NCBI GenBank assembly: GCA_034664845.1
Contig: JAXDGW010000010.1
Span: forward strand, 58,936 to 122,935
DNA: 64,000 nucleotides
From: Thermoanaerobaculia bacterium
Lineage (GTDB): Bacteria > Acidobacteriota > Thermoanaerobaculia > Gp7-AA8
Direction of reading: 5' to 3'
In this document: positions 3,895 through 61,669 of the stretch, in pieces
How positions within the stretch are numbered: the first letter of the stretch is position 1
Layout of the letters: every line of letters begins with the position of its first letter
Program-made: the position numbers and the translations under genes
Notes under the pieces: model-generated
What the model saw: only the letters and a program-made list of their open reading frames with translations
What the model was told of the DNA's origin: nothing
Databases searched by the model: none

Positions 3895-3916
3895 GGGTTG
3901 TGTCAGATGGAGACGT

Positions 3917-4228
3917 TTACTCGCGCAACCAGAGCACGAACATGGTCAGCGCGAAGATGCGATGCGAGTTTACGAGTCCGCGCTCCTGCCCTTCGAGCAA
4001 GCGCCGGACGACGGTCTGGCCGAAATGCTTCGAAGCGCCGAGAACGTCGCGAAAGAAGCGGCCCCAGTCGCAGAGCCGGCGGTGGCCAAAGCCGGCCCGG
4101 CCGTCCGGCGCGCGCCAAACGCCCTGATCATCGGGCCCGCGGTGGCGAAGGGTCAACGCCATCGCCTCGAGGATCTCGATACGGACGACTTCACCCGGCC
4201 GGGCCGTGGTGCCGCAGATTCCGCACAT
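3917..4228 (-). pseudogene. Remnant of a second asparagine synthetase (AsnB) gene: N-terminal glutamine-amidotransferase fragment only
   Basis: 103-aa ORF MCGICG...LRHRGPDDQGVW...GFGHRRL. This is the Cys2 nucleophile and the conserved HRGPD and GHRRL motifs of class-II GATase. Homology to the intact AsnB at 7954..9777 stops after about 55 aa. It lies in an otherwise gene-free 342-bp gap. Confidence 0.5.
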
Positions 4229-4236
4229 GCCCGCTG

Positions 4237-9777: not shown

Positions 9778-9779
9778 GG

Positions 9780-11704: not shown

Positions 11705-11708
11705 CGGG

Positions 11709-12782
11709 TTACGCCGTCACCGTCGCGCCTTGCTGCACGGCCTTTTTCTCTTCCGCCTTGATCATCTCTTCGATGATCGACGGGAGCTCGTGCGTGATCG
11801 ACCACGACGGGAAGTGCTCCTTCATCTTGTTGAGATTCGAGATGTAGCAAATGTGATCGCCGATGCGGTTCCGCTCGTCGTACGTCCACTTCACGCGATA
11901 GCCGCCGATCTGCTCGATGAGGTCGAAGCATTCCAGCACCGATGCGGCGTTCGAACGTCCACCGCCGAGGTTGTAGACCTCGCCCGGCCGGGGATTCGCA
12001 GCGAACGCCTCGAATGCCGCGATGACGTCCGCGCTATGGATCTGGTCGCGCACCTGCTTCGCTTTATAGCCGAACACCGTGTACGGCTTGCCTGTAACCG
12101 CGACATGTACGAGGTACGAGAGAAAGCCGTGTAACTCCACGCCGGAGTGAGACGGCCCTGTGAGGCAACCGCCGCGGAAAATCCCCACTTTCATTCCGAA
12201 ATACTTGCCGTACTCCTGGGCCAGAACATCGCCGGCTGTCTTCGATGCGCCGAAGAGCGAATGAACGCAACGGTCGATCCGGCAGTCTTCAGCGACACCA
12301 TCAAAGTCCTCGGCGCGCGCATAGTCCCAGCGCTTCTCGAGCTCGACGAGGGGAATCTCGTTCGGCGCGTCGCCATACACCTTATTCGTGCTCATGTGAA
12401 TGAACACGGCATCCGCGGCGTGACGGCGCGTCGCTTCGAGAAGGTTCAAGGTACCGACGGCGTTCACGTCGAAGTCGTCGAACGGAATGTCTCGGGCCTT
12501 GTCGTGCGACGGCTGCGCCGCGCAGTGGACGATCATGTCCGGCCGCGATTCCTTGAAGAAATCCAGCACCGCGGCGCGATCGCGAATATCGATGTCGTGC
12601 GGCGAAAAGCGCTGCGTTTCACGCATCAGCCGTTGCAAGTTCCAGCTCGTGTCGCCCTCGGGACCGAAGAACTCGCGCCTCATGTTGTTGTCGATGCCGA
12701 GCACCGAGTATCCGGCCGCATCGAAGTGCTGCACCGCCTCGGAACCGATCAAACCACTGCTTCCTGTTACCAGAACACGCAT
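11709..12782 (-). CDS. NAD-dependent epimerase/dehydratase, CDP-paratose/tyvelose 2-epimerase-like SDR
   Basis: MRVLVTGSSGLIGSEAV (Rossmann GxxGxxG), catalytic YxxxK region (MSTNKVYGD...), 357 aa. The C-terminal part is typical of CDP-sugar epimerases. Confidence 0.65.
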   Translation of the reverse strand: MRVLVTGSSGLIGSEAVQHFDAAGYSVLGIDNNMRREFFGPEGDTSWNLQRLMRETQRFSPHDIDIRDRAAVLDFFKESRPDMIVHCAAQPSHDKARDIPFDDFDVNAVGTLNLLEATRRHAADAVFIHMSTNKVYGDAPNEIPLVELEKRWDYARAEDFDGVAEDCRIDRCVHSLFGASKTAGDVLAQEYGKYFGMKVGIFRGGCLTGPSHSGVELHGFLSYLVHVAVTGKPYTVFGYKAKQVRDQIHSADVIAAFEAFAANPRPGEVYNLGGGRSNAASVLECFDLIEQIGGYRVKWTYDERNRIGDHICYISNLNKMKEHFPSWSITHELPSIIEEMIKAEEKKAVQQGATVTA

Positions 12783-12785
12783 GAC

Positions 12786-13823
12786 TCACTCCACCTTGAT
12801 CGCGCTGCGGCGCAGGACGGCGCCGAGGCCAATGTCGTCGAACATCTGTTTGAAACGGTGCGTCCACATATGCTCGGCCCGAGTCCGATCGTGGTACGCC
12901 CTGGCGATACGGGCCCGCTCACTCTCGTGGCTCGCGTAATAACGCACTTTCTCCGCACAGTCGTCCAGATCCTCGAACGCTACGAATTCTTTCCCCGGCT
13001 CGTAATAGCGTTCCAGGCTGGGACTCTGACGGCAGATCATCATCGTACCCGAAAGGCCCTGTTCGAATGTCCGGCTCTTGATCTGGAGGATGTCGGCGCT
13101 GACGCTGGCCTCCATCGGCGTGTACGAGATCCTGCTGCGGTTCCAGATGTCATTGATCTCGTCGTAATGAATGACCGCGCCATAAATTGAAGGGAAACGG
13201 AACGTCACTTTGCGGATGCCGGGCCAATAGAGAAACGCCGGCGTGCGCACCATTCCCGACATGAAGCCGTAGACACGGAGACCGGCGTGTTTGGCGAGGT
13301 AGCGGGCTGAGCGCACCCGGTCGCCGTAAATCTGGCCTGCGAACGTAAAGTCGAGATCCTTCGGCCGGTCGAAGTCGCCGAATCCGTCGAAGCATCCCCA
13401 CTGACTCAGGCGCAGGTTCGGATAGCGTGCCCGGTTCTGCTCGAAAATGTGCGGATATGTCGTAAACATGAAGGTGAAATAGGGAGCCATGAGGCTCGTC
13501 TGGCTCTCCCAGGCGAAATCGTCGTCGCTGTTCCAGGCAATCGTCGGCGCGTAACGCCCCGCTTCCCGAACCGGTTCACCGATGTGCCGCGCCTCCTGAC
13601 AGGCGGTCTGATAGATGATGGCGTCATAGCCGCCCTCCCGCACCGTTTTCAGAAACTCCTCGCCCGTTTGCGCCGGCCCCTTTTCCTTCATGGAACGGTA
13701 ATGGTCGAAATGTGCGACGTCGACGCCGAGCGAGCGGAGTACGTCCGTAAAAACGATATACAACGGCTCCACCGTATTGCTCACCCCGTAGTAGCCCTTT
13801 GTGACACAAGAAAGAATCTTCAT
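12786..13823 (-). CDS. CgeB-family (DUF3880/Glyco_trans_1_2-like) putative glycosyltransferase
   Basis: 345 aa. The C-terminal region VAFEDLDDCAEKVRYYASHESERARIARAYHDRTRAEHMWTHRF resembles the CgeB spore-maturation GT family. The assignment rests on memory of the family. Confidence 0.4.
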   Translation of the reverse strand: MKILSCVTKGYYGVSNTVEPLYIVFTDVLRSLGVDVAHFDHYRSMKEKGPAQTGEEFLKTVREGGYDAIIYQTACQEARHIGEPVREAGRYAPTIAWNSDDDFAWESQTSLMAPYFTFMFTTYPHIFEQNRARYPNLRLSQWGCFDGFGDFDRPKDLDFTFAGQIYGDRVRSARYLAKHAGLRVYGFMSGMVRTPAFLYWPGIRKVTFRFPSIYGAVIHYDEINDIWNRSRISYTPMEASVSADILQIKSRTFEQGLSGTMMICRQSPSLERYYEPGKEFVAFEDLDDCAEKVRYYASHESERARIARAYHDRTRAEHMWTHRFKQMFDDIGLGAVLRRSAIKVE

Positions 13824-14464
13824 CGTGGCGGGGTGATGCGGATGATGTCGTCAACGACTTCGACGCTGTAGTGGGGGTCCAGGGAAGCCACGATCTCACG
13901 GACGCCGTCGATCGTAGGATAGTCCGCCGTTCCATTAAACGATCGCGCGTCGTCGACGAGCAGTACGTGACCTGGCGCATTCCGTCGAAAGATCTCCCGC
14001 AACTCCTGGGCGATCGGCGTGTCGATCGTGCCGCGGGCCGTAGCGCCGCCCGAATAGTGAGCGTCAAGCCAGAAAAGGGCACGGCCGGAAAGCCCGGCCA
14101 CGATTCCTGGAAGCTCGCTGGCGCTGTCGCCATGGTGAAGGTGGATGTGCGGTCTCCGCGCAAAGCGCGCCCGCGCCTTCGCATAAAACTCCTCGCTCAA
14201 CTCGATCGAGTGCAGCGTCTCGAAGGACCTGGCCATCGCCGCGATCATGTCGCCGAGATAGGTGCCGGTCTCAACAAGTGTCCGCGCTCCATACCGACTG
14301 GCGTAGTCACGGACCACGCGGCGTTTGACCGCGTGCGGCATCCCAACGGATGCATCCCACATTCCGAGCCGGTAACGGATTCCCTGAATCCAATGAAGCA
14401 CGCGGTAGTGGAGATACAGCAGACGCCGGCGAAGCGGGATCGCCACCGGAACGTCATTGGTCAT
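13820..14464 (-). CDS. Class I SAM-dependent O-methyltransferase (TylF/Methyltransf_24-like)
   Basis: TLVETGTYLGDM (motif I variant) and FWLDAHYSGG. The ATG at 14462-14464 overlaps the GT2 stop (ATGA). The longer ORF start at 14533 would overlap the upstream gene by 73 bp. Confidence 0.55.
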   Translation of the reverse strand: MTNDVPVAIPLRRRLLYLHYRVLHWIQGIRYRLGMWDASVGMPHAVKRRVVRDYASRYGARTLVETGTYLGDMIAAMARSFETLHSIELSEEFYAKARARFARRPHIHLHHGDSASELPGIVAGLSGRALFWLDAHYSGGATARGTIDTPIAQELREIFRRNAPGHVLLVDDARSFNGTADYPTIDGVREIVASLDPHYSVEVVDDIIRITPPR

Positions 14465-15351
14465 AAAGACTCCCTGGCCATGAACAACCGCTTCATGCGG
14501 CGCCTTACAGCCTGCGACATCCAGCCGCTCCATATAAAGAGATCGCGCACGTATTTGATCGAAGCAAGAACCATGACGTATGTCTGAAACCCTCGCGAGG
14601 CTCCGGCCATCCGTGCGACCTTCACGTACCGGAGCGAGTACTTCAGATTCTCGCGCACATAAACGAGGAGCCCCGACGGCACGGACACCATTGCCTGATA
14701 GCGTTTGAAGAAAAGGATCTTCGGCGCGATGCGGCAGGGGCCTTGAAGGATCAGATCGAACACGAAAAGCACGTCCGAGGCGAAGGGCGCCCAGTGAAAC
14801 ACAGTCAAACCGTGGCCGAGCCCTGAGCGGCGATGAAGAGCATAAAACAGATTCGCCTTGCCGTAGCCGTCGTTCTGCAGGATGAAGCGGCGCACGCGTT
14901 CGCGCCGGCCAGCGACTTCAAATTCCGCCGTCTTGTTGACGACCCAATCGCCCTCAGGCATCCAGAAGTTCTGCACGAACGTAAAGGCCATCACAGCCGT
15001 TGGGTCGTTGTCGAGAAGTTCTACCACGGTCGCCAGATACTCCGGCGCCCAGATATCGTCAGCCGCTGCCCACATGTAGTACGGAGCGGACGTCTCGGCG
15101 AGAACGAATTCGAAATTCGCAATGCCTCCGCGGTTCTGCGTATGGCGGACATACCGCACACGGCTGTCGCTCGCCGCCAGGCGACGGCAGATCGTCTCCG
15201 TCTCGTCGGTCGAGCCATTGTCGGAGATGAGGAGATCGAACGCCGTGAAGGTTTGCGAAAGCAGAGACACGACGGCCTCTTCAATGGTATCGCCGCCGTT
15301 GTACACAGGCATACCAATGCTGACGCGTGACCCATCGGACTCACGAGGCAA
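14461..15351 (-). CDS. Glycosyltransferase family 2
   Basis: VSIGMPVYNGGDTIEEAVVSLLSQTFTAFDLLISDNGSTDETE. This is the classic GT2 N-terminus with a DxD-type segment. Confidence 0.75.
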   Translation of the reverse strand: MPRESDGSRVSIGMPVYNGGDTIEEAVVSLLSQTFTAFDLLISDNGSTDETETICRRLAASDSRVRYVRHTQNRGGIANFEFVLAETSAPYYMWAAADDIWAPEYLATVVELLDNDPTAVMAFTFVQNFWMPEGDWVVNKTAEFEVAGRRERVRRFILQNDGYGKANLFYALHRRSGLGHGLTVFHWAPFASDVLFVFDLILQGPCRIAPKILFFKRYQAMVSVPSGLLVYVRENLKYSLRYVKVARMAGASRGFQTYVMVLASIKYVRDLFIWSGWMSQAVRRRMKRLFMARESL

Positions 15352-16843
15352 AGCGGTTCCTCAATGTCAGGACAATTCGCTGGCGAACGTCACGCGCCGT
15401 CATGGCAGCGCACAATAGCGCGGCGGCGCCGGTGAACCCGATGGCCAGCAGCGCGCGCAGTGTCGTCAAGCTCGCCGGCGTGATCGCGCGTGCGACGGCG
15501 ACAACGAGAATAGTAGCCCCGAGCGGAAGCAGCGTGTCCCGAAAATACCAGGGCCATTTGGCGTGAGGCAGAATACGAGTGTGCATGATGGGGATGCTGA
15601 TCGTGAGATAGCCGATATTGAGGATCAGCCACGCAAATGCGGCACCAACCCCTCCGAACTGTCGCGCGAGCACGATCGTCAGCGGCACGATTACCGCGAC
15701 CGCCACGGCGTTCGTATAGATGCTCAGCGAGACCCACCCGTACGCCAGCTGCAACTGATACGGAAGGAATAGAGTTGAGTGGAGCATCGTGCCGACGACG
15801 AGCACGGACAGAATCGCCGCGGTGCTCGATGCAGTCCGAATGTCGTGCGTCCACGCCAGGAGGAGCTCATACGAAAAGAAACTGATCACGACGGCGGCCG
15901 GGAATACCACCACCGACATGAGCTGACACGCGCGGTGATAAACATCCTCGAGTTGGCCCCAGTCGGCAAGCGCCACAAGAGCGGTAAAGCGAGGAAACAG
16001 GGCCTGCGAGAGCGGTCCCACAAGCCGGTACAGACTGCCGGCCGCAACGCCCGCCAGCGTGTAATAGCCGAACAGTTCCAGCGGCAGAAACCGGCTGAGC
16101 ACGAGTTTGTCCGCCTGGGTCAGCGCGACTGCCAGCAGCGTGATCGCGTTGGCACCGGCGGCAAAACGCCAGATCGCGTGAAGCTCGCGTTTGTCGAACC
16201 GCGCCCGGTCGCCGGGAGGCAACGTCAGCCACACCGCGCTGCACATCGCCGCGGTCTGCAATGCATAAGCAACGGCCTGCCATTGAAAAAACGCGGACAC
16301 GCTCGGCTCGATCAGAGTGAGAACCAATACCGAGCCAACGCCATTGACCACGGCAGCGGATACGTTGATGACGTTCGCCGTAACTTGACGCTCCAGTCCA
16401 TAGAGCACCCCGGCGTAAAAGCTGAGGGGCCATTGCAGCATCGACGCGATGCCGATGAGAACCATCGTCCGCGTGAGCACGGCCGTCGTGAGATGGCTAT
16501 CCCCAAGCCAATGCGTAGCGATCAGCGGCGCCAGCGCCGCCACAGAGACGCCGATCATCAGGGCGACACCCCAATACAGAGTCTCTGTCGTCCGGATGAG
16601 AACCCGGTTCTTGGATGCGCGTTCCGGCGATGCCGATCGAAGAGCCAATTCTCTCATGACTGCGACACTGAGGCCTGCATCGAGCGGCCCGAACAGAGAC
16701 TGCAGCGCCGCAAACACCCCCACTAAGGCATAACCTTCAATGCCCATTCGCGCGATGTAAAACGGAATGAGCACCAGCGAAAGCAGCGCCGGCAGGATGC
16801 TCCCGGCATAATTCGCGGCGATGTTGCGGATCGTTTTCGTCAT
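15341..16843 (-). CDS. wzx: Wzx-type oligosaccharide flippase (MOP/polysaccharide biosynthesis protein family)
   Basis: 500 aa and about 12-14 TM helices. The N-terminus IRNIAANYAGSILPALLSLVLIPFYIARMG is typical of PST/Wzx. Confidence 0.8.
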   Translation of the reverse strand: MTKTIRNIAANYAGSILPALLSLVLIPFYIARMGIEGYALVGVFAALQSLFGPLDAGLSVAVMRELALRSASPERASKNRVLIRTTETLYWGVALMIGVSVAALAPLIATHWLGDSHLTTAVLTRTMVLIGIASMLQWPLSFYAGVLYGLERQVTANVINVSAAVVNGVGSVLVLTLIEPSVSAFFQWQAVAYALQTAAMCSAVWLTLPPGDRARFDKRELHAIWRFAAGANAITLLAVALTQADKLVLSRFLPLELFGYYTLAGVAAGSLYRLVGPLSQALFPRFTALVALADWGQLEDVYHRACQLMSVVVFPAAVVISFFSYELLLAWTHDIRTASSTAAILSVLVVGTMLHSTLFLPYQLQLAYGWVSLSIYTNAVAVAVIVPLTIVLARQFGGVGAAFAWLILNIGYLTISIPIMHTRILPHAKWPWYFRDTLLPLGATILVVAVARAITPASLTTLRALLAIGFTGAAALLCAAMTARDVRQRIVLTLRNRFAS

Positions 16844-18000
16844 CGTGCGCGGAGAAGCGCCGCCGACGGGCCGCGAAGGGCTTCGACAGCGTCCACGAGC
16901 ACCTCGCAGACGCGGAGGACATCCTCTTTCGTTAGATTGAGTCCACTGGGCAAATTCACTCCATACGGGGCAATCCGGTACGCCACCGGATTGCGTTCCC
17001 TCGCGCCAATCGCCGAGGGACTGCCGGCATAGGCTGGGATAGAGCTCAGCGGATGAAAAAACGGCCGTGTGTCAATGTCTGCTTCCCGCAGTTGATGGAT
17101 GAGCTCTTCCTTGGAAACGCCCAACTCAGGATCGACGATCACGGTAATCATCCAGTAGGCGTTCTTCGTCCCCGGGGCCTCATCGTTCAGAGTGAGCTCC
17201 GGACGGTCCGCCAGTTTCTCGCGGTACCACTGGAAAATCTCGCGCTTACGATCCACAAGCTCATCGACTCGCTCCAATTGCGCCAGTCCGAGTGCTGCCT
17301 GCATGCTCGACATCTTGTATTTGAAGGCAACCTCACGATTGAAGAACATCGTGTCGCCGGGCGCGCGGCCGTGATCGCGGAGAACGCTGGCTCGCCCAAA
17401 GAGCTGCTCGTCATCCGTAACGAGCATCCCGCCCTCGCCCGTTGTCAGCGTCTTGGAGCCGTGGAAGCTGAAAACGCCGGCACGCCCGAAACTACCGGCG
17501 CGCCGGCCGAAGTATTCGGCGCCAATCGCTTCCGCGGCATCTTCGATGACGGCGATGCCGTGGTGGTCTGCGATCGCTTCAATGGCTGCCAGGTCGGCCG
17601 GGCTGCCATACAGGTCAACAGGAATCACCGCCTTTGTGCGAGGCGTAATGGCCCGCTCGAAGGACTCCGGGTCGAGACACCAGCTTTTCTCGTCGATATC
17701 CGCGAACACCGTCGCCGCGCCGACATACGTAATCGGCGCCGCCGAGGCGATCCAGGTCGCCTCGGGGACAATTACCTCGTCTCCTGGGCCAATACCGAGC
17801 GCAGCCAGCGCCAGGTGAATCCCCGCGGTGCAAGACGGCAGTGCGATGGCATAACGGACACCGATGTAGTCAGCAAACGCCTTCTCGAATCGATGATGAA
17901 AGACGTTCGCATTCGCGTACCACGCATTGCTGACGGCATCCATCACATAATCGATTTCTTTTTGTGTGATCCAGGGACCGGAAACAGGAATACGGCTCAT
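16840..18000 (-). CDS. DegT/DnrJ/EryC1/StrS-family PLP-dependent sugar aminotransferase
   Basis: SGPWITQKEIDYV, ALPSCTAGIHLAL and FSFHGSKTLTTGEGG (the PLP lysine region). The M8 start (MSRIP) at 18000 avoids overlap with the upstream gene. Confidence 0.8.
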   Translation of the reverse strand: MSRIPVSGPWITQKEIDYVMDAVSNAWYANANVFHHRFEKAFADYIGVRYAIALPSCTAGIHLALAALGIGPGDEVIVPEATWIASAAPITYVGAATVFADIDEKSWCLDPESFERAITPRTKAVIPVDLYGSPADLAAIEAIADHHGIAVIEDAAEAIGAEYFGRRAGSFGRAGVFSFHGSKTLTTGEGGMLVTDDEQLFGRASVLRDHGRAPGDTMFFNREVAFKYKMSSMQAALGLAQLERVDELVDRKREIFQWYREKLADRPELTLNDEAPGTKNAYWMITVIVDPELGVSKEELIHQLREADIDTRPFFHPLSSIPAYAGSPSAIGARERNPVAYRIAPYGVNLPSGLNLTKEDVLRVCEVLVDAVEALRGPSAALLRAR

Positions 18001-18005
18001 ACTCG

Positions 18006-18740
18006 TTAGTCCTTCACACAACGCAGGTAACCATCTCTGGCCACTGTAACCAGGAGCTTCGCCTCAATTCGCTTGTCAATTTCGAAGCGGTCATTTGTCT
18101 TCATGAATTCCCACACAGCCGTCTTCGGGTTGTTCGACTTACCCCACGGCCGGTCTGTGAAGAACCCCTCCGGCTGATCTTCGATGGTCGTGTCGAAGAC
18201 AACGAGGTAGCTGTCCTTACCGACGAGCGGCGAGTACGCTTCCAATTCGGCCAGGACGTGGTCGTGCGTGTGATTGGAATCGAGCACGACGATGGTTCTC
18301 TTTCCAGCAGCGCGGGCGGCCACTTGCGCCACGACGCCTGCGTCTATGGATGAACCGGAGATCATGTCGATGCGCCCGGCCATCGGATGCGCCTCGATTC
18401 GCTTGCGATTGTGGTCGCGGATATCGATATCGATTCCCAGTACGCGACCGTCGCCGCCGAGAAGCTGGAGCATGGAGGCATAGAAGATCAGCGAGCCGCC
18501 GTGCGCAATCCCCGTCTCCACAATGAGATCCGGGCGAACCTCCCAGATGATCTCCTGCATCGCGCAGAGATCCTGAGGAAATTGAATGATCGGTATGCCC
18601 AGCCAGTTGAAATTGTAGGTGTACTTGAACCGGGCCGTCTCGCGCATGAAGTCGAGCCCCAGGCTGCTCAAGGCCGCATCGCCGCCCAGGGCTTCGATAT
18701 TGCGCTTCTTCTCCTCGTCAAACAACTCCAATGGATCCAT
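18006..18740 (-). CDS. CmcI/rhamnosyl-O-methyltransferase family (cephalosporin-hydroxylase-like class I MTase fold)
   Basis: PDLIVETGIAHGGSLIFYA...RVLGIDIDIRDHN...VVLDSNHTHDHV. 244 aa. Confidence 0.6.
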   Translation of the reverse strand: MDPLELFDEEKKRNIEALGGDAALSSLGLDFMRETARFKYTYNFNWLGIPIIQFPQDLCAMQEIIWEVRPDLIVETGIAHGGSLIFYASMLQLLGGDGRVLGIDIDIRDHNRKRIEAHPMAGRIDMISGSSIDAGVVAQVAARAAGKRTIVVLDSNHTHDHVLAELEAYSPLVGKDSYLVVFDTTIEDQPEGFFTDRPWGKSNNPKTAVWEFMKTNDRFEIDKRIEAKLLVTVARDGYLRCVKD

Positions 18741-18784
18741 CGGCAGTCCTTATTCTCGAATCGTGGCAGCGCGTAGCGGCGAAT

Positions 18785-19831
18785 TCAGTGTTGGGATGTT
18801 CCCGCACCGACTGCGCTTTGGCCAATCGCTGCCTCTCCGGCACATCGTTCAGCAATGCTCATGATCAGCGACTGAGAGGGGTTGATGACGTCGACTTTGC
18901 TGACCTCGGTGATGAGGAGCTTTGCATCGACGTGGTATTGCTCGCATGCTTTCTCGATTCGCGGCAGAAAGCTGGAGTGAAACTGCGCCGAGGCCATCGT
19001 CACCTCGAGGGCGGAGACACCCGTTCCGCCGGTCATCAGAGGCTGAATCAGCCGCTCGCCCACTTCCATTGCTTTGAGCAGGTCTACTCCTGTCTTGTAG
19101 CCCAGTTTCTCCAACAGCACCAGCATGACCTCGGTCTGTGAATTGCCGCTGCTCCGTCCCATACCGAGCATCGTCGTGTCGATCATCGTCGCGCCCGCCT
19201 CAATCGCCGCAAGGGCGTTGGCGTTTGCGAGGCCGAAGTTGTTATGACCGTGGAATCCGATCCCTGTATCGCCAACGACATCGCGGAGGCGGGCCACATA
19301 CTCGCGGACCTCATTCGGCATCATGCCTCCGGCGGAGTCCACAAGGTAGACGGTCTCGGCGCCCCATTCCGCTGTCTCTTTCAGGCGGCGCTGAAACTCC
19401 TCTGGCGAGACTGCATAGGACTTCATGGCATTGTAGGAAACTTCGAATCCAAGTTTCCGGCCATACTCGATGAACTCCCGCGCCTCCTCGGAACGGGTGA
19501 CGTTCGTGCCGATCCGGATGAACGACATCCCGTAATGACGGGCCATGTCGAGATGCTCCTTCGTTCCCAGCCCGGGAATGAAGAATGCGCCGAATTTCGC
19601 CTTCTTCAATGCCTGCGCGGCGGCGCGGACATATTCCTCGTCCGAGGCGGCGGCGAGGCCGATTTCGGGAACGGAAGCGCCAAGGCCGGAGCCATGTCCG
19701 ATCTCGATCAAGTCGAAACCTGCGGCCTCGAGTGCCGCGCTGATGACGGACGTGTCGTGCGCGGTAAATTTGAAATCGATGGCATAGCTGCCGTCGCGGA
19801 GTGTGCACTCCAGGATTCGTACGCGGTTCAT
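18785..19831 (-). CDS. DRE-TIM metallolyase (HMGL-like; 4-hydroxy-2-oxovalerate aldolase/2-isopropylmalate synthase superfamily) aldolase
   Basis: RILECTLRDGSYAIDF... and HGHNNFGLANANALAAIEAGA (metal-binding His-x-His of DRE-TIM aldolases). It is not paired with an acylating dehydrogenase. Confidence 0.6.
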   Translation of the reverse strand: MNRVRILECTLRDGSYAIDFKFTAHDTSVISAALEAAGFDLIEIGHGSGLGASVPEIGLAAASDEEYVRAAAQALKKAKFGAFFIPGLGTKEHLDMARHYGMSFIRIGTNVTRSEEAREFIEYGRKLGFEVSYNAMKSYAVSPEEFQRRLKETAEWGAETVYLVDSAGGMMPNEVREYVARLRDVVGDTGIGFHGHNNFGLANANALAAIEAGATMIDTTMLGMGRSSGNSQTEVMLVLLEKLGYKTGVDLLKAMEVGERLIQPLMTGGTGVSALEVTMASAQFHSSFLPRIEKACEQYHVDAKLLITEVSKVDVINPSQSLIMSIAERCAGEAAIGQSAVGAGTSQH

Positions 19832-19862
19832 TGTCGAGATCTCCAATCCGAATTGCGGAATT

Positions 19863-20960
19863 TTATAATGAGTCAGCGATTATGCGGCAGCTCTTGCGTA
19901 TCGATTCTGCGCTCGCCGACTCGTCGACCCACAGGTTCAACACGCGTGGGCAGAAAACTGCGGTATTTGGTGCACTCTTATCGCCGTCGAAGATGTCGGC
20001 GAGCGACCAGTAGTGATTCGATGCATTGAGCCCGTTGCGCCGAAGACTCGACGTTACGCGAAACGTGGCGTCCGCGGTCGGCAGGAGGAACGTATAGCGC
20101 CACACGGAACCGCTCGACCGCCAGTTATCGCTCTGCCGAACCGGAAGCCCGGCCAATGCCGCGTGATACTGCTCCGCGCGCTCCAGCCGCGCTTTCAGAT
20201 TATCGGGGAGTTTCGCCAGTGCATCCTCGATGAGCTCGGCGACTCCATTCTCCGGGAATCGGTGAAAATACAGCTCGCGATACGCAGTCATCGCCGTACG
20301 GAACACGCCCTGCAACTGCGCTTCATTCTCAGTGCGTAACAGGTCGACAACACCGTGGTAAAGATTCCGGTGACTGAGAGCCTTGAGCGAAATGCGCGGC
20401 GACGTATCAAAGGCAGGTAATGCCGCGATCTCCCGCTCGATGGCAGCCAGATGACGGTCATCGTTGAGCAGCAATGCTCCGCCACCACCGGCGGAGACGA
20501 TCTTCGTGCCTCCGAAACTGAGGACACCGAAATCACCGATTGCGCCGAGCTTGGCGCCGCCGTATTCGCCGCCCAGGCTCTGCGCCGCGTCTTCGATCAC
20601 ATACAAACCATTCTGCCGCGCGATCTCCATGACGCGATTCATGTCGGCGGCATGACCGAACAGATGCACGGGCATGATGGCGCGGGCCGCCGGCGTCACC
20701 GCTCGTTCCAGTGCGCCGATATCCAACGTGTAGTCGTCGAGATTGATATCGACGAACCGCGGCGTGAAGCCCGCGTATTCGATCATCTGGGCGATCGACG
20801 CGCACCCGATCGCGGGCACCAACACCTCGCCAAGTCCCGCCTGCATCTCCACAGCCTTCAATGCCAGGTAAATTGCCGTCGTGCCGTGGCCTGTGAGAAT
20901 GACATGGCGGCAGCCGAATTGCCGGGCGATAACCTGTTGCAGACGCCGGAGGTCAGACAT
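19863..20960 (-). CDS. DegT/DnrJ/EryC1/StrS-family aminotransferase (short variant)
   Basis: ILTGHGTTAIYLAL, YVIEDAAQSLGG and SFGGTKIVSAGGGGALL. Confidence 0.7.
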   Translation of the reverse strand: MSDLRRLQQVIARQFGCRHVILTGHGTTAIYLALKAVEMQAGLGEVLVPAIGCASIAQMIEYAGFTPRFVDINLDDYTLDIGALERAVTPAARAIMPVHLFGHAADMNRVMEIARQNGLYVIEDAAQSLGGEYGGAKLGAIGDFGVLSFGGTKIVSAGGGGALLLNDDRHLAAIEREIAALPAFDTSPRISLKALSHRNLYHGVVDLLRTENEAQLQGVFRTAMTAYRELYFHRFPENGVAELIEDALAKLPDNLKARLERAEQYHAALAGLPVRQSDNWRSSGSVWRYTFLLPTADATFRVTSSLRRNGLNASNHYWSLADIFDGDKSAPNTAVFCPRVLNLWVDESASAESIRKSCRIIADSL

Positions 20961-21876
20961 AGGTCAGCTCCGCGGCCGCGCAGCGAGCGACCTGCTCGAG
21001 CGTGGCGATAGCGACGTCGCCGTATTCGCCGGCAGCGGCAACGAGATATTCGACATTGCTGGCCACCGTTTGCAGATCATGCGCATAAAGAGGGTGCCCA
21101 ACCGGTCCGCGCGTTTCCTCGGGGTGAAGAATTGTGACCACGACGTGATCGCCCTCTCCAAGCGATTCGAGATGACGCTTGAATGCTGCCCGCAGAATGT
21201 CGCTTCGGTAGGCGAGATTGAGATAACGCGTCAGCGGACGCGGGTCATTGGGACCTTCCACCGGCGCCGACGTCATCGGCACTTCGACAATCGGGAGAGC
21301 TGGAGAACCAGTAACCCGATAATCGGCCGCCGACGGCCGGTACGGCTGATTGGGCGTGACCGACCAGTCGAAGCGGCGTGACGAATCGTCGCGGCGGCGT
21401 CCGGGGATTGCGGTTGAATCGACGGTAATACCGAGCTCGCTCAGTGTCCTCATCGACTGATTGCCATGAAATGCCTCGCCGATTCGCGACGCAGTGAAGT
21501 GATAACCGCTCGCGGTCAGAGACGCATGGATCTCACGCAACGCATCGGCGCACCGGCGGTCGTCAGTCTCCGCCACGAAGGTTCCCTGCTCGTCGCGCCT
21601 GACTACATGCGGATGCCATCCAATGAAGTGGCCGGCCTGGCGCAGATTGCTCCAGATCGCATTGTGCTCCCGCAGGAGCCATGCCGCGTCGCCATAGACA
21701 TCGCTCAGCTGGTTATCAGCCCGAACGAACCATGTGGCCGTTATCCCGTGGCGGCCAAAAACCCCGGCGATGCGCGGAACTTCGGCCACGCTGTCCCAGA
21801 TGAGCGTATTTCGCTCGTCGGCGGCAGTCATGCCGTCATTGTCAATATCGACTGTAAAAACAAAGGAGATTGTCAA
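20953..21876 (-). CDS. Polysaccharide deacetylase (CE4/NodB-like) family protein
   Basis: FTVDIDNDG...HGITATWFV...GWHPHV. The TTG start overlaps the upstream TGA (TTGA). Confidence 0.5.
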   Translation of the reverse strand: MTISFVFTVDIDNDGMTAADERNTLIWDSVAEVPRIAGVFGRHGITATWFVRADNQLSDVYGDAAWLLREHNAIWSNLRQAGHFIGWHPHVVRRDEQGTFVAETDDRRCADALREIHASLTASGYHFTASRIGEAFHGNQSMRTLSELGITVDSTAIPGRRRDDSSRRFDWSVTPNQPYRPSAADYRVTGSPALPIVEVPMTSAPVEGPNDPRPLTRYLNLAYRSDILRAAFKRHLESLGEGDHVVVTILHPEETRGPVGHPLYAHDLQTVASNVEYLVAAAGEYGDVAIATLEQVARCAAAELTYV

Positions 21877-22499
21877 GAGAGGAACGCCGGAGTCTTATAG
21901 ACCAGGAGTGTGAAATGGAAAGGGAGATAGTCGTGCCGCAACTGTACGAACGGAGTAAGTGTTTTCCCGTGCGCGAACATCTCCTCGGGACTGAAGTAGT
22001 TCAGACGCGGCTCTTCGTAATTGACATATTTGCTCAGCATGTCGACGGAGACGCAAATCCGCGCTGAGTCGAACGCCGCAGATACCGCCGCTTTGACGAT
22101 GTCGTCGTTCGAGCCTTCGCTGTACCGATTGTTGAACACCTGGCACATGACGATGTAGTCGGCCTCGTGGCCGATGCCGTCACGCGAAACGTCGCGTAGC
22201 TCAAAACGGGCTTGCGGAAACCGCTCTCGGTTTGACTCGATGAACGCGGGAACGAGATCGTAGCCGATGTAGTCGACCTCGCATCCCTGAGCTCTCAGGA
22301 ATTCGTAATAGTGACCAAGACCGCATCCGATATCGAGAACCGTCTTCCCATTCATCGGGCCTGCTGCCGCATGCACAGCGTGCTGAAGACGGTAATGCTC
22401 CTCCCGTCCCGGATTCAGGGAGCGTAAGTCGACACCGAATTCTTCAAAGCGGCGCGTATAACGGCCGACGATCTCTTGTTTGTCCGCGTCGGAAATCAT
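21873..22499 (-). CDS. Class I SAM-dependent methyltransferase
   Basis: KTVLDIGCGLGHYYEFL (motif I) ... DYIVMCQVF. 208 aa. Confidence 0.7.
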   Translation of the reverse strand: MISDADKQEIVGRYTRRFEEFGVDLRSLNPGREEHYRLQHAVHAAAGPMNGKTVLDIGCGLGHYYEFLRAQGCEVDYIGYDLVPAFIESNRERFPQARFELRDVSRDGIGHEADYIVMCQVFNNRYSEGSNDDIVKAAVSAAFDSARICVSVDMLSKYVNYEEPRLNYFSPEEMFAHGKTLTPFVQLRHDYLPFHFTLLVYKTPAFLS

Positions 22500-23698
22500 G
22501 CCACCTCCGCCGGGCGAACGACGTCATACTGGATTCGCGCGTGCGCCTCGCGCGAGATTTGCAGCAATTCCTGATGATCGCGGCCCGTGGCCAGGAGAAA
22601 ACCGGGCCGTTGGCCGCCATTTTGAGCGGCGGAAATCACGTCGCCTGGTTGCACGAAGAAACCGGCATCGACCACACCCGCCAGATCCTTCACTTCGGCG
22701 ATTCCGTCGAGGCGAAGCACAGTTCCTTCGGGCAGCATAAGAAATTCGAGCAGTCCCGCCAATGAGCGTGTGGGCGTGAGATCGACCGCGTCGCCAAGAG
22801 ACTGCCTGATCCGCTGCCCTACCGCGTCAATGCCGGTCATCGCGGGTATGAGCAACGTCGCCACACCGGCGCCGCAACCACGCGCGGCAATCTCGATGAG
22901 CCGCGGCCCGGCCGGCGTAACGATGTACTCAGCATGCGTCATCCCCATTTCGATGCCTACCGCCCGAATGACACGTTCGTTCAAGCGGACCAGTGCGCCG
23001 ATCACTTTGGGATCGAAAGACGCCGGATACAGGAGCCGGATATCGAAGCTGTAGGGAGGCGCGCACTTTACCTTCTCACAGATTCCAAACACCGTCACCG
23101 CACCATTGGAGACGAATGCCTCGATCGACGACTCCGTGCCCGTCATCATCTCTTCCACGAGTACCGAATGATCGGAACTGAACACGCTTGCGGTCTCGAA
23201 CCACGCCACGACATCGTCAGGTGAATGCAGTTTCGCCACACCCCGGCTTGCCTGCGCATCCAGTGGCTTTACGACGACCGGAAATCCGATCTCAGCCGCG
23301 CCGGCTGCCGCTTCTTCCGCCGATCTCGCTCTGATGTATCGCGGCATTGGCAGCCCCGCCTCGCGGCAGCGCTCCCGCATGATGAATTTGTTCGTCGCAG
23401 CGACGGCCGTATGGAGACCGATGCCGGGAAGCCCGAGGTTTTGGGCGATGTGCGCGGCGGTAACTACGGCCACATCCGTTTGCTCCGCGATGACGCCATC
23501 CACACGGTGCTTTCTGGCGATTGTGAGCATGGCATCGCGATCGCGCGTGTCGGCCACTTCGATTTCATCGGCAATCCCCAGAGCGGGAGCATCGGCATTC
23601 TGATCCGTTGCAATGACGTGGAGACCCATCGCCTGCGCAGTACGGATTACAGGGACCTGCCACACACCTGCAGTAAGAACGAGTAGGCGTCGCTTCAT
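22496..23698 (-). CDS. ATP-grasp domain carboxylate-amine ligase
   Basis: PVVVKPLDAQASRGV (ATP-grasp B-loop region) ... EEMMTGTESSIEAF. 400 aa. It is the first gene after a small hairpin downstream of the protease gene. Confidence 0.65.
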   Translation of the reverse strand: MKRRLLVLTAGVWQVPVIRTAQAMGLHVIATDQNADAPALGIADEIEVADTRDRDAMLTIARKHRVDGVIAEQTDVAVVTAAHIAQNLGLPGIGLHTAVAATNKFIMRERCREAGLPMPRYIRARSAEEAAAGAAEIGFPVVVKPLDAQASRGVAKLHSPDDVVAWFETASVFSSDHSVLVEEMMTGTESSIEAFVSNGAVTVFGICEKVKCAPPYSFDIRLLYPASFDPKVIGALVRLNERVIRAVGIEMGMTHAEYIVTPAGPRLIEIAARGCGAGVATLLIPAMTGIDAVGQRIRQSLGDAVDLTPTRSLAGLLEFLMLPEGTVLRLDGIAEVKDLAGVVDAGFFVQPGDVISAAQNGGQRPGFLLATGRDHQELLQISREAHARIQYDVVRPAEVA

Positions 23699-23740: not shown

Positions 23741-26245
23741 TTAACGGCCGCGCGGGATGACCGGGTTAAACGTTGGCGTCGTGGTGGTGAGATTGGCCGT
23801 GGTGACGACGCTGAAGCCGTTCATGAGCCAGACCACGTTCGCACCGGTCGCTGGGTTGTGCCAGAGAATGTCGCCAGTGCCATTGCCGTTGAAATCGCCC
23901 GCCCCGCCGAAACGGAACGCGCTGTTCATGGTCTGGATGAACGAGCCCGCGGCAGCTGTAGCACCGTTCATCAGCCACATGACACTCTGCCCGGTGGCAT
24001 CGTTGTGCCATAACAGATCTGCCTGACCATCGTTGTTGAAGTCGACCGCCGCGGCGAGGTTGTACGCGGGATCGACCGAGTTGATCTGTCCTCCGCCGTT
24101 GAGCGAAAAACCATTCATGAGCCACATGTAGTTCGCGCCGGTGGCTGGGTCGCGCCAGAGAAGGTCGCCTTTGCCATCTCCATTAAAATCGGCGGCACCG
24201 GCAAGACGTACATTCGCAGTCGTCGTTTGTATGAAACTACCTGCCGCAACCGTGACGCCGTTCATCAGCCACATCACGTTCTGGCCGGTGGCATCGTTGT
24301 GCCACAAGATGTCCGCTTTGCCGTCGCCGTTGAAGTCGATCGCTGCGGCGAGATTGTAGGCGGCGTCGAACGTCTGGATTTGACCACCGCCGATGACGTT
24401 GAATCCGTTCATCAGCCACATGTAGTTGACGCCGGTCGCCGGATCGCGCCACAGAAGGTCGGTCCGGCCATCGCCATTGAAATCGGCAGCCGCGCCGAGC
24501 CGGACGTTCGTCGTCGCGTTGGAGATGAACGCGCCTGACTTCGTTGTGGTTCCGTTCATCAGCCACACCACGTTCTGACCGGTGGCGTCGTTGCGCCACA
24601 TGATGTCGTCGATGCCGTCGCCATCGAGATCCCAACGCGCCCGCCGCACCGGGTTCACGGTTACCGTACCAGTTGGACTATCGGCAAACCCGCAACTATT
24701 CGTTACACGCACCCAGTAGCTTGTCGTGCTGGAGGGCGACACTGTGACAGACGCAGCGGTTTGGCCCTGCATCGGAGAAGACGTATTGCCGCTCGTTCCC
24801 ACATACCACTGATACGACAATGGCGCGGTACCGCTTGCGGTGACGCTGAGCGTGGCCGAACCTCCCGCGGTAATCGTTTGTGATGCCGGTCCGGATTGGA
24901 TCGACGGCGGAGTACACGTTGAACAACTACCGCCGGGATAAACGGCGGCGGCGGCGTGCTGGTCCCACGCCTGCAGCGCTGCGTTGAGACCGTGCGTAAC
25001 ACTTGCTGTCATGACCGCGGAGGAAGAACACTCCAGCGATGGATCGCTCGAGCACGGCACGTTCGGATTGTCCGCGCGGGTCTGGTCGGAGTGGCGGAAC
25101 CCGAGTGTATGGCCGAGCTCATGGGCGATCGCGGTCGGCCAATCGCCACTGTTCAGGAGCAGAGAACAATTCGCGATCCCGCGGTTCATCTCCACGTCGC
25201 CTTCGGAGGTGCTGAAGAACGTCTCGGTGCCGAGCGAGTTTGTGCCGATCGTCTCCGTGACGCCACCGACGCCGAGAGTGCCCGCATATGAGTTGCTCGA
25301 GCAGGTAAACGGCGGAGCACCATAGGCGGATAAATCGCGCTCGAACAACACGGTATTTGCACTGTCAGGACCAGCGAGTCCGGTTGTGTGTGTCGTGTCG
25401 GTGCCCCCATAGGCATAGTTGATTTGGGACGGACAATCATTGGTCCAGGTGGCGAGCCCGGTCTGTACAGCGGGAAAACCATTGCCCGGCGCGCCCGGCT
25501 CACCATTGGCGTTCGCGTAGAACACTACCGGACTCGGGAAAACGGCCCAGCGAGCGCCACGCCCGCTTCCGACTGTGTACGAGGTGGCGGAAAACGTGGC
25601 CAGCGTGATGAGGGCCGGCGGCGAGCTCATCGTGCCCATCGCCCGTCGCTGACCACTTGACTCACTCATCGCGAGCGGCTGGCTGTCAATCACGTAATCC
25701 TGGCGCGCCGGTCCTCCGTGAGCTTCCGCACGCACAAAGTTCAGGAACTCGGTGGCCGCCCGGCGCAGCTCACGGTGCGACGCGCCACTGGGATCCCATC
25801 CGACGATGTCGGCCTCATCCCGAACGGCGATCGCCCGCCCGCGCACATCTTCTGTGAGGCGGAACTTGCCGAGCACGAGGTCAGTAACGGCCCACGATCG
25901 CTGTGGTGTCATTGTAAGAAAAAGAAGCACGCGGTCACCAACAGCGAAGGAAGGAGCGCCGGGGACGAATGTGGCGCGTCCATCGTAGACGCCACCGGGC
26001 TCATGCACTTCGAAAACAGCGCCCGGATCTCCTTTGATGGTTTCCTCGGATGCCATGACGGTCACCGTTTCGATTCCGCCATGCGTGTTGAGCTGAACGT
26101 ATGAGCTTGTTGCGTTCGCTACTACGATCGCGTCGGCGCGCCTGACCATGTCACGATCGGGAGGCACGATGAACGTCGCGGCGTGGACGATGGTGGCAAC
26201 AAACAGGAGAGAGGGGGCGGCGAGAGCTAGAGTTCTGGGCTTCAT
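23741..26245 (-). CDS. Secreted metzincin-type zinc metalloprotease with Ig-like domain and about 8 C-terminal FG-GAP/beta-propeller repeats
   Basis: Signal peptide MKPRTLALAAPSLLFVATIVHAATF. HELGHTLGFRHSD matches HExxHxxGxxH, followed by a Met-turn candidate (AVMTA). C-terminal repeats DFNGDGKADILWHNDATGQNVMWLMNG, about 46 aa each, give nucleotide-level tandem repeats at 23760-24660. Confidence 0.6.
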   Translation of the reverse strand: MKPRTLALAAPSLLFVATIVHAATFIVPPDRDMVRRADAIVVANATSSYVQLNTHGGIETVTVMASEETIKGDPGAVFEVHEPGGVYDGRATFVPGAPSFAVGDRVLLFLTMTPQRSWAVTDLVLGKFRLTEDVRGRAIAVRDEADIVGWDPSGASHRELRRAATEFLNFVRAEAHGGPARQDYVIDSQPLAMSESSGQRRAMGTMSSPPALITLATFSATSYTVGSGRGARWAVFPSPVVFYANANGEPGAPGNGFPAVQTGLATWTNDCPSQINYAYGGTDTTHTTGLAGPDSANTVLFERDLSAYGAPPFTCSSNSYAGTLGVGGVTETIGTNSLGTETFFSTSEGDVEMNRGIANCSLLLNSGDWPTAIAHELGHTLGFRHSDQTRADNPNVPCSSDPSLECSSSAVMTASVTHGLNAALQAWDQHAAAAVYPGGSCSTCTPPSIQSGPASQTITAGGSATLSVTASGTAPLSYQWYVGTSGNTSSPMQGQTAASVTVSPSSTTSYWVRVTNSCGFADSPTGTVTVNPVRRARWDLDGDGIDDIMWRNDATGQNVVWLMNGTTTKSGAFISNATTNVRLGAAADFNGDGRTDLLWRDPATGVNYMWLMNGFNVIGGGQIQTFDAAYNLAAAIDFNGDGKADILWHNDATGQNVMWLMNGVTVAAGSFIQTTTANVRLAGAADFNGDGKGDLLWRDPATGANYMWLMNGFSLNGGGQINSVDPAYNLAAAVDFNNDGQADLLWHNDATGQSVMWLMNGATAAAGSFIQTMNSAFRFGGAGDFNGNGTGDILWHNPATGANVVWLMNGFSVVTTANLTTTTPTFNPVIPRGR

Positions 26246-26382
26246 GGCGGGTCCGGAGAGTGATCGCCGGAGTACCAATGCGAAAGATCTGCCTGTCAAC
26301 CGCCTCGCTCTTCAGTATAGCGGCCTCGGCCACAGCGAAGGCTGATGGGCCCGCCCAGTTCCGCTCGTTACACCTCGTACCG

Positions 26383-26967
26383 TCACTCATTGAGCTGATA
26401 ATCGGGATACGCGCCGTCACGCCGCGAAAGGATCGGATCAGTCAGAGGCCACTGAATTCCGAACGCCGGATCGTCCCACCGAATCCCTCGGCTTGCCTCT
26501 GCTACAAAACGCGCTGACATTTCGTAATAAACGTCGGATTCGTCGGCCAAGGTCTGGAACCCGTGAGCAAAATCCTTGGGAGCGTATACCGCGCGCCGGT
26601 TTTCAGCCGTGAGCTCGACGGCGGCCCAATGGCGATACGTCGAGGAATCGCGGCGCAAATCGACGATGACGTCGAGTATCGCACCGCGGACACAGCGAAC
26701 GATCTTCGCTTCCTGATGCGGCGCCGCCTGATAGTGCATCCCTCGCAGTGTCCCCTTTTTCCTGTTGTGCGAGATGTTGCACTGTGCAATGCAAGGCTCG
26801 AGGCCGAGCTCGAGAAACTCCTCCGCACAGAAGGTGCGGGCGAAGAATCCACGATCGTCTGCAATGGGCTCGATATCAATCACGTACGCACCGGCCAGTG
26901 GGAGAGCGGCGAACCTCAATGCAGAACCTCGACCTCTGGAATGAGAACGGCGAACCGCCCTCCCCAC
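26383..26967 (-). CDS. rfbC: NDP-4-keto-6-deoxyhexose 3,5-epimerase (RmlC/RfbC cupin family)
   Basis: AYVIDIEPIADDRGFFARTF...RGMHYQ...KIVRCVRGAILDVIVDLR (RmlC His/Tyr catalytic region). A possible TTG start at 26919 forms a TTGA overlap. Confidence 0.75.
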   Translation of the reverse strand: MGRAVRRSHSRGRGSALRFAALPLAGAYVIDIEPIADDRGFFARTFCAEEFLELGLEPCIAQCNISHNRKKGTLRGMHYQAAPHQEAKIVRCVRGAILDVIVDLRRDSSTYRHWAAVELTAENRRAVYAPKDFAHGFQTLADESDVYYEMSARFVAEASRGIRWDDPAFGIQWPLTDPILSRRDGAYPDYQLNE

Positions 26968-29197: not shown

Positions 29198-29201
29198 GAC
29201 G

Positions 29202-53991: not shown

Positions 53992-53999
53992 AAATCCAA

Positions 54000-56230: not shown

Positions 56231-56233
56231 CCG

Positions 56234-61658: not shown

Positions 61659-61669
61659 TGTTTGCGGTT

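Follow-up and report, generated by a model that had tools for sequence, protein, structure and literature searches.

We have identified a seven-gene block in a glycan-biosynthesis locus of a Thermoanaerobaculia bacterium (Acidobacteriota) that brings together a DmpG-like aldolase, a DegT-family transaminase and an ATP-grasp ligase resembling L-amino-acid ligases. The block lies in a stretch of 64,000 nucleotides, referred to here as the window (contig JAXDGW010000010.1, positions 58,936 to 122,935), which comes from a metagenome-assembled genome (MAG) and carries a glycan locus of ~50 kb. The reading that we favor, and consider somewhat probable, is that the block serves as a cassette for the synthesis of an unusual carboxylic acid and its attachment, through an amide bond, to the amine of a nucleotide-activated amino sugar. 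The seven genes are listed below in order of transcription.

22496-23698, minus strand: ATP-grasp carboxylate-amine ligase, L-amino-acid-ligase-like, 400 amino acids (aa); Pfam LAL_C2 and ATP-grasp_4
21873-22499, minus strand: small class I S-adenosylmethionine (SAM) methyltransferase, 208 aa, core cassette member; Pfam Methyltransf_12/23/25
20953-21876, minus strand: CE4/NodB-fold metal-hydrolase-like protein, 307 aa; assigned from the predicted structure
19863-20960, minus strand: divergent DegT-family pyridoxal phosphate (PLP) enzyme, DegT2, 365 aa; PF01041, E=3e-56
18785-19831, minus strand: DmpG-like class II (metal-dependent) pyruvate aldolase, 348 aa; HMGL-like PF00682, E=2.8e-42
18006-18740, minus strand: CmcI/rhamnosyl-O-methyltransferase-family methyltransferase, 244 aa; PF04989, E=3.6e-90
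16840-18021, minus strand: canonical nucleoside diphosphate (NDP)-sugar aminotransferase, DegT1, 386-393 aa; PF01041, E=3e-117 over the full profile

The gene identities proposed in an earlier, sequence-only reading of this DNA hold: all seven open reading frames (ORFs) were found at these coordinates on the minus strand, and their families were confirmed or refined by profile and structure searches. Gene spacings within the block are -4, -4, -8, +31, +44, +5 and -4 bp, i.e. an overlap or a gap of at most 44 bp, which fits one transcription unit. A promoter and terminator scan of 15-33 kb returned nothing above chance. Because the operon is transcribed from high to low coordinates, the block occupies its middle, upstream of flippase and glycosyltransferase genes; the placement of these genes in the distal third of the operon had been a strand error. 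The JGI contig Ga0467039_0000061 encodes copies of the aldolase, DegT2 and the 307-aa protein at 100% identity.

In order to compare the block across genomes, one genome per species was scanned with an alignment of the CE4-like family, giving 80 loci from many phyla, and the window proteins were searched against these loci by tblastn with linkage defined as a distance within 7 kb. An ATP-grasp gene was linked in 51 of the 80 CE4-like loci, DegT2 in 46 and the 208-aa methyltransferase in 35, and DegT2 immediately followed the CE4-like gene in 45 of 47 cases. ATP-grasp and DegT2 genes occurred together in 42/80 loci, and in 32/80 the aldolase, transaminase and ATP-grasp genes were all linked, across three sugar contexts. 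In a Lentisphaerae MAG, the order ATP-grasp, methyltransferase, CE4-like, DegT2, aldolase, CmcI is identical to that of the window at 46-61% identity. Colinear recurrence of this kind in dozens of unrelated genomes places the gene grouping beyond chance.

Among the loci that combine ATP-grasp with DegT2 (42 in all), the sugar contexts were cytidine diphosphate (CDP)-6-deoxyhexose with a C-methyltransferase (4 loci), nonulosonic acid (13 loci) and Arn-like (22 loci). The first is defined by a CDP- or NDP-6-deoxyhexose pathway with a TylC3-type C-methyltransferase, an RmlC-like epimerase and DegT1, and was seen in the window, the Lentisphaerae MAG, an Actinomycetes MAG, Pseudolabrys and WPS-2. 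The second comprises PseB-like, NeuB, cytidine monophosphate (CMP)-synthetase and PseG-like genes and was found in Alphaproteobacteria, Chitinophagales, WOR-1, Uhrbacteria, Methanosarcinales and cyanobacteria. The third consists of an ArnC-like GT2 glycosyltransferase, an LPG-synthase-type membrane protein (LPG_synthase_TM), an ArnA-C-like short-chain dehydrogenase/reductase (SDR), an ArnB-like DegT enzyme and GT87, together with WbpB/WbpE/hexapeptide-acetyltransferase-like genes; it is common in Acidobacteriaceae (L026-L065, e.g. L031 at 3077-17777) and suggests that a lipid-linked acylated amino sugar is passed to an envelope acceptor. A canonical DegT-type sugar aminotransferase is a common neighbor in most cassette loci. 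To judge from these neighborhoods, the block is a portable cassette that is independent of the sugar scaffold and apparently horizontally mobile. In Woodsholea maritima DSM 17123 (L018, 5744-18401), the cassette is flanked by nonulosonic-acid genes on one side and a flagellin gene on the other; it consists of ATP-grasp, CE4-like, DegT2 and aldolase genes together with a different methyltransferase. The same cassette is found beside CMP-synthetase-like genes in Hyphobacterium (L016, H. vulgare KCTC 52487; L049) and a Maricaulis MAG (L015). Woodsholea and Hyphobacterium are cultured and open to experiment.

The ligase bears most directly on the proposed chemistry. The ATP-grasp protein matched Pfam LAL_C2 (E=4e-17; 62.7 bits against a cutoff of 29.4) and ATP-grasp_4 (E=1e-13; 51.6 against 27), and its best matches in the Protein Data Bank (PDB) include RizA (4wd3; 2.5e-18) and BL00235 (3vot; 8e-17). 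It scored 74-80 bits against PurT models (cutoffs 339-502) and 38-40 bits against PurK models (cutoffs 318-375), far too low for a purine enzyme; kinship with PurK or PurT was one of two findings that, according to the sequence-only reading, would overturn it. The domain architecture is that of the L-amino-acid ligases RizA, BL00235 and BacD/YwfE, which also provide the best sequence matches, although at a distance (E 1e-17 to 1e-18); the substrates of those ligases are two free amino acids, whereas gene linkage here suggests an amino-sugar nucleophile. Amide formation, suggested previously as the closing reaction, is the likely last step. An LAL_C2-type ATP-grasp gene was found 1-3 genes from the aldolase in 8/8 aldolase-subfamily contexts that were looked up.

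The aldolase is a full-length relative of solved aldolases (8ih7, 4lrs, 4jn6 and 1nvm; E 1e-53 to 1e-58). As called, the gene begins with an ATG five codons inside a 353-aa ORF, and the 348-aa form is the one on record. The protein exceeds the cutoffs of the family models TIGR03217 (287.9 against 286) and PRK08195 (310.9 against 229), and its match to DmpG_comm is weak (19.6 bits against 27). DmpG, BphI and HsaF, the DRE-TIM metallolyases of aromatic and steroid meta-cleavage, share with it an HMGL-like TIM barrel followed by a C-terminal helical domain. The Arg-Asp and His-x-His metal/pyruvate site of these enzymes is also kept: R12, D13, H194 and H196 align with DmpG Arg17, Asp18, His200 and His202 and are retained in 116-117 of 117 relatives (49-100% identity). 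The rest of the active site differs. DmpG His21, which together with Tyr291 we take to be the catalytic acid/base pair on the strength of studies of BphI and DmpG, is replaced by Tyr16 (115/117 relatives), and Tyr291 is replaced by His285 (117/117), while all four solved canonical aldolases have His and Tyr at these positions. In addition, GMGA is changed to GMGR, adding an Arg (Arg226), and LLLPG to FFIPG, giving a Phe-lined pocket. The active-site changes are kept in 113-117 of the relatives, and the altered residues were present in every cassette-linked copy with an aligned position, down to 36% identity. Such family-wide changes indicate a distinct subfamily whose substrate is probably not canonical. 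PDB entry 3dxi, a 'putative aldolase' of Bacteroides vulgatus, shares the RDG-x-Tyr and GMGR features of this glycan-associated subfamily; of the solved structures, it may come closest to the altered active site.

The surroundings of the aldolase also depart from those of DmpG, BphI and HsaF, in that it lies in a glycan context and has no dehydrogenase partner. The sequence-only reading had described an aldolase separated from its usual partner, and had named beforehand a DmpF partner in an aromatic-degradation context as the finding that would overturn this; no acylating aldehyde dehydrogenase (DmpF) family gene and no aromatic-degradation gene was present among the Pfam-scanned window ORFs. 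There was likewise no DmpF partner among the neighbors in 8 related aldolase contexts, and no DmpF-like Cys motif was found, although this is a weak test. Since catalytic pair, partner and context all deviate, the automatic label '4-hydroxy-2-oxovalerate aldolase' should not be applied to this protein. In most nonulosonic-acid and Arn-like contexts, a domain of ~370 aa (X370) is fused to the aldolase or follows it (L031 5897-8071 and about 25 others, including L026, L033 and L013 at ~13.1-14.1 kb). X370 had no Pfam or PDB match, and a profile built from 22 copies found no match in the window, so that X370 is not part of the window locus. Its position corresponds to that in which DmpF would touch the communication domain, and it may therefore represent a new partner of the aldolase. 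A GNAT domain is fused to the aldolase in P0082.

DegT2 is matched by PF01041 mainly over residues 5-171, its N-terminal half. The family is a discrete clade of ~99 clusters, and matches beyond the clade cover half the protein. The Schiff-base Lys is retained: the SFGGTK motif aligns with the Lys of perosamine synthase, and K153 is invariant in 38 relatives. An AlphaFold2 (AF2) model with a mean predicted local distance difference test (pLDDT) score of 96.5 shows a complete sugar-aminotransferase fold, with template-modeling (TM) scores of 0.75-0.80 to WbpE, perosamine synthase and others; the structural neighbors include Fic25 and AHBA synthase, two DegT-fold enzymes whose substrates are small molecules other than sugars. 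A firm assignment of DegT2 as a non-sugar-type enzyme, considered because of the half-profile match, was rejected on account of this complete fold. Going by its place in the cassette, DegT2 is probably the transaminase of the acyl precursor.

The 307-aa protein had no match in Pfam (even at E<=1), NCBIfam or PDB by sequence, and its family is small, with 98 clusters among 5.8 billion proteins. Its AF2 model, built on 40 relatives, reached a pLDDT of 96.1, and the top 25 Foldseek matches were all CE4 or related deacetylases (probability 1.0, TM 0.40-0.56), the best structures being 3rxz, HP0310, ArnD and WbmS at a TM of ~0.55. Its previous description as a CE4-like deacetylase is therefore supported by the predicted fold (pLDDT 96, CE4/NodB best matches), not by sequence search. 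D10, R52, D54, H88, H90, R131 and D153 are invariant in the family, and Asp10, His88 and His90, which sit in TVDxD and HPH motifs where CE4 enzymes place their Asp-His-His metal triad in TFDD and H(S/T)xxH, would be compatible with a metal site. The protein thus shares with the CE4 de-N-acylases ArnD, HP0310 and WbmS a predicted fold and, putatively, a metal site of one conserved Asp and two His, but it differs from them in its lack of a Polysacc_deac_1 match, its His-x-His spacing, the TM of only ~0.55 and its substitution by Amidohydro_2 enzymes in sister cassettes.

In these sister cassettes (L006, L087, L089 and L091-L093; coordinates L087 2389-8654, L089 3221-11521, L091 5883-14536 and L092 6781-14447), an Amidohydro_2 enzyme takes the place of the CE4-like protein and DegT2. 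Their additional genes vary and include an unknown paralogous protein of 262-271 aa, class III aminotransferase fusions, a GNAT domain joined to the aldolase and B12-radical SAM enzymes (L089). In the loci compared, the orthologue of the 208-aa methyltransferase always adjoins the hydrolase gene, whether CE4-like or Amidohydro_2. This methyltransferase had weak NCBIfam matches only, and a PDB search gave no functional resolution. Two unrelated metal hydrolases in one slot beside a methyltransferase, in combination with a window CDP-sugar that carries no N-acetyl group, hint at methyl-ester, lactone or lactam chemistry and not at sugar deacetylation.

The pathway for the acceptor sugar lies just upstream of the cassette (26383-30020), with an FG-GAP gene between them, and consists of the following genes.

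29202-30020, minus strand: glucose-1-phosphate cytidylyltransferase; TIGR02623, 453.6 against a cutoff of 300
28142-29197, minus strand: CDP-glucose 4,6-dehydratase; TIGR02622, 461.2 against 278
26916-28142, minus strand: TylC3-type C-methyltransferase; Pfam Methyltransf_13 and Methyltransf_14
26383-26883, minus strand: RmlC-type epimerase; TIGR01221, 162.6 against 156

The intervening gene (23741-26299, minus strand) encodes an FG-GAP repeat protein with Ig_3 and TcdB_toxin_midN-like segments, and it is missing from the otherwise colinear Lentisphaerae locus. DegT1, whose best NCBIfam models are LegC, PseC, ArnB and DesI, all under their cutoffs, is the putative supplier of the sugar amino group. 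The CmcI-like protein scored 301.6 bits against PF04989 (cutoff 23.2), 98.8 against the NCBIfam rhamnosyl O-methyltransferase equivalog (cutoff 400) and 1.4e-10 with CmcI in the PDB, and the PDB search gave no functional resolution. Among the comparison loci, CmcI occurred only where a TylC3-type C-methyltransferase was also present, in the CDP-6-deoxyhexose context. Its confinement to such loci indicates that it belongs with the sugar pathway and probably methylates the sugar, not the acyl group, and its former inclusion in the tailoring module is not supported. In the window, the cytidylyltransferase, the 4,6-dehydratase, the C-methyltransferase, the RmlC-like epimerase and DegT1 would together yield the acceptor, probably a CDP-4-amino-4,6-dideoxy-C-methyl-hexose, to which the CmcI-like enzyme would add an O-methyl group. 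Once complete, this sugar would pass to the downstream flippase and glycosyltransferases. The set of C-methyltransferase, RmlC-like, DegT1 and CmcI-like enzymes fits a kansosamine-like sugar, which we take to be a 3-C-methyl, 2-O-methyl, 4-acylamino-6-deoxy-L-hexose if N-acylated; this is a candidate only.

The steps that we propose for the cassette follow from family membership and gene linkage. The DmpG-like aldolase would condense pyruvate with a small carbonyl compound to a 4-hydroxy-2-oxo acid, and DegT2 would transaminate the 2-oxo group to give a gamma-hydroxy-alpha-amino acid. The 208-aa methyltransferase and the CE4-like hydrolase would then tailor the acid, candidate reactions being methylation with de-esterification, deacylation, and lactam or lactone chemistry. 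Finally, the ATP-grasp enzyme would activate the carboxylate as an acyl phosphate and couple it to the sugar amine. The scheme is drawn from the comparison. The module is constant across hexose, nonulosonic-acid and Arn-type pathways, and so most plausibly acts on their commonest shared feature, the amino group that a DegT-type enzyme installs. That the aldolase is constantly paired with an ATP-grasp enzyme like the amino-acid ligases points to its product, once tailored, as the carboxylate that the ligase activates. Lastly, an aldolase that accompanies three unrelated scaffolds and is missing or replaced in some cassettes would be expected to make an acyl side chain, not a ring modification.

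Several observations weigh against this scheme. L091 and L092, which are in a CDP-sugar context, contain Amidohydro_2 and the 262-aa protein and lack DegT2 and the CE4-like gene, so transamination is not universal. Some cassettes (L007, L010, L022, L023 and L080) lack the aldolase or carry a substitute for it, although all their other genes are present. In the first of these, an Actinomycetes MAG, a class I/II Aminotran_1_2 PLP enzyme fills the aldolase slot (8168-9367) of an otherwise complete cassette, which suggests an alternative supply of the acyl precursor. The complete sugar-aminotransferase fold of DegT2 means that this enzyme could act on a sugar. The acceptor amine is already free, so the hydrolase step is not accounted for. 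Lastly, a UDP-glucose/GDP-mannose dehydrogenase-family gene lies ~12 kb away (35700-37067), and a sugar carboxylate is a possible ligase substrate.

This dehydrogenase opens the way to a reversed polarity, in which the aldolase and DegT2 would supply a small amine, an amino acid or amino alcohol, for the ATP-grasp enzyme to attach to a sugar carboxylate, either of a uronic acid or at C1 of a nonulosonic acid. A gene of the same dehydrogenase family is found directly downstream of the cassette region in L092 as well, nonulosonic acids bear a carboxylate, and some DegT-family enzymes use small molecules, such as Fic25 and AHBA synthase among the neighbors of DegT2. We nevertheless regard this alternative as unlikely. 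The adjacent pathway of the window yields a CDP-4-amino-6-deoxyhexose, which has no carboxylate; the usual neighbor of the cassette is a sugar aminotransferase and not a dehydrogenase; and the ligase matches L-amino-acid ligases, which activate the carboxylate of an amino acid.

The sequence-only reading had instead assigned the aldolase to the sugar itself. As spelled out here, the enzyme would add pyruvate or acetaldehyde to a keto-sugar nucleotide, after which DegT2 would aminate the side chain and the ATP-grasp enzyme would amidate or cyclize it. The aldolase does lie between two sugar-type aminotransferases, one of which is DegT2 with its complete sugar-aminotransferase fold, and its altered site (His/Tyr swap, extra Arg and Phe-lined pocket) permits an unusual electrophile. 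Extension or branching of the sugar is made less likely, however, by the presence of the aldolase subfamily beside three unrelated sugar scaffolds, always next to an ATP-grasp gene, and by its replacement or loss from cassettes that are otherwise intact, of which L007 is an example and L010, L022, L023 and L080 are others. Nonulosonic-acid loci, moreover, already have a NeuB-type synthase, and to our knowledge no DmpG-type aldolase acts on nucleotide sugars; we consider sugar branching improbable. Equally improbable is a re-acylation in which the CE4-like enzyme removes an N-acetyl group, the ATP-grasp enzyme installs another acyl group, DegT2 adds a second amino group and the aldolase is accessory, since, for all that the nearest CE4-fold structures (ArnD, HP0310 and WbmS) are sugar N-deacylases, that a PIG-L deacetylase lies beside the cassette in Moorena and that GNAT acetyltransferases occur in several nonulosonic-acid loci, the CDP-glucose-derived sugar of the window has no N-acetyl group to remove and in variants its place is taken by the unrelated Amidohydro_2 enzyme, which in each case adjoins the methyltransferase.

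Within the preferred reading, i.e. acid supply followed by N-acylation of an amino sugar, a more specific product can be suggested tentatively. N-acyl groups on bacterial amino sugars include 3-hydroxy-2,3-dimethyl-5-oxoprolyl and 2,4-dihydroxy-3,3,4-trimethylpyroglutamoyl (PMC10609480), and the molecular basis of a related acylated sugar in C. coli has been called unknown (bioRxiv 10.1101/050328). The cassette might be a route to N-acyl groups of this hydroxylated, C-methylated glutamate/5-oxoproline type, a proposal to which we give a low probability. N-acyl sugars of the 5-oxoprolyl type are known from Plesiomonas shigelloides O74, Vibrio cholerae O5, Vibrio anguillarum V-123 and Campylobacter coli. 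The swapped, Arg-bearing aldolase would form a 4-hydroxy-2-oxoglutarate derivative from pyruvate and a keto acid, either glyoxylate or a second pyruvate; the small methyltransferase would act at C3, as GlmT does, or form a methyl ester; and DegT2 would transaminate. The CE4-like enzyme, or Amidohydro_2 in its place, would close or open a lactam or lactone, and the ATP-grasp enzyme would couple the product to amino sugars of the hexose, nonulosonic-acid or Arn type, with the whole serving as a plug-in module.

The closest parallel in pathway logic is the assembly of nikkomycin, in which the DmpG/DmpF homologues NikB/NikA build a 4-hydroxy-2-oxo acid that a transaminase turns into the amino acid. 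Coupling of an amino acid to the amino-sugar nucleoside is the work of the ATP-grasp enzyme NikS (PMC11641026). The succession of aldolase, transaminase and ATP-grasp enzyme is the same in both systems, as is coupling to the amino group of a sugar derivative, and they are likened by this logic, not by the sequence of the Nik proteins. The cassette differs in its proposed acceptor, a nucleotide sugar for a surface glycan where nikkomycin has an antibiotic nucleoside, in lacking a NikA-type dehydrogenase, in using a DegT-type transaminase and in its additional pair of methyltransferase and hydrolase. A second parallel is the glucuronamide of the Campylobacter jejuni capsule, for which DegT-like enzymes make a small amine that an ATP-grasp amidoligase attaches; the alternative of reversed polarity considered above would be of this kind. 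DegT-fold enzymes and an ATP-grasp amide ligase in surface-glycan decoration are common to both systems, whereas that of C. jejuni has no aldolase, methyltransferase or CE4-like enzyme and takes its carboxylate from the sugar. A PDB search with the ATP-grasp protein gave no close sequence match to the C. jejuni system. Full-text searching of the published literature found no description of the gene combination reported here. Glycan N-acyl tailoring by an ATP-grasp ligase is of a known kind, and the new element would be the proposed dedicated, aldolase-based supply of the acid.

N-acyl groups on amino sugars help to determine how O-antigens, capsules, S-layers and flagellin glycans act as antigens and probably also influence recognition by phages and the immune system, and the enzymes for most non-acetyl decorations are unknown. 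The cassette ranges over Acidobacteriota, Chloroflexota, Alphaproteobacteria (including the cultured Woodsholea and Hyphobacterium), candidate phyla and archaea, and over at least three amino-sugar pathways. Proteins annotated automatically as '4-hydroxy-2-oxovalerate aldolase' and 'dTDP-4-amino-4,6-dideoxygalactose transaminase' include separate glycan-associated subfamilies. The cassette offers testable enzymes for glycoengineering as well as cultured strains for identification of the product.

The remainder of the window is largely given over to glycan genes. Transcription order begins with the first of the two groups listed here, and the second lies 3' of the block.

~32.1-30.0 kb, minus strand: GDP-mannose 4,6-dehydratase and GDP-fucose-synthase-like reductase
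3' of the block down to ~0.5 kb, minus strand: Wzx-like flippase, glycosyltransferases, four methyltransferases, an SDR and an AsnB-type amidotransferase

More glycan genes are found at 32-50 kb, and housekeeping genes (TyrRS, HisZ/HisG and an M23 peptidase) lie beyond 50 kb. A second large FG-GAP repeat protein of the glycan locus, with a DUF11 domain, is encoded at 42553-44364 (minus strand). Long ORFs without a Pfam match occur at 5352-6872 (minus), 33178-34800 (plus), 49678-50748 (plus), 53955-56728 (minus), 57722-59008 (minus) and 60948-62264 (minus); the first of these lies between glycosyltransferase genes and may encode a polymerase or ligase-type membrane protein. The AsnB-type glutamine amidotransferase of the same operon (7954-9777, minus strand), whose best model is the XrtA/PEP-CTERM-system amidotransferase (529 bits against a cutoff of 817), could have as its target a carboxyl group, either in the glycan or in the acyl substituent, and convert it to an amide. 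Five extra SAM methyltransferase genes (13820-14533, 10628-11704, 9780-10682 and 2911-3894, all minus, and 34769-35710, plus) are present besides the C-methyltransferase, CmcI-like and 208-aa enzymes, and the product is therefore likely to be heavily methylated.

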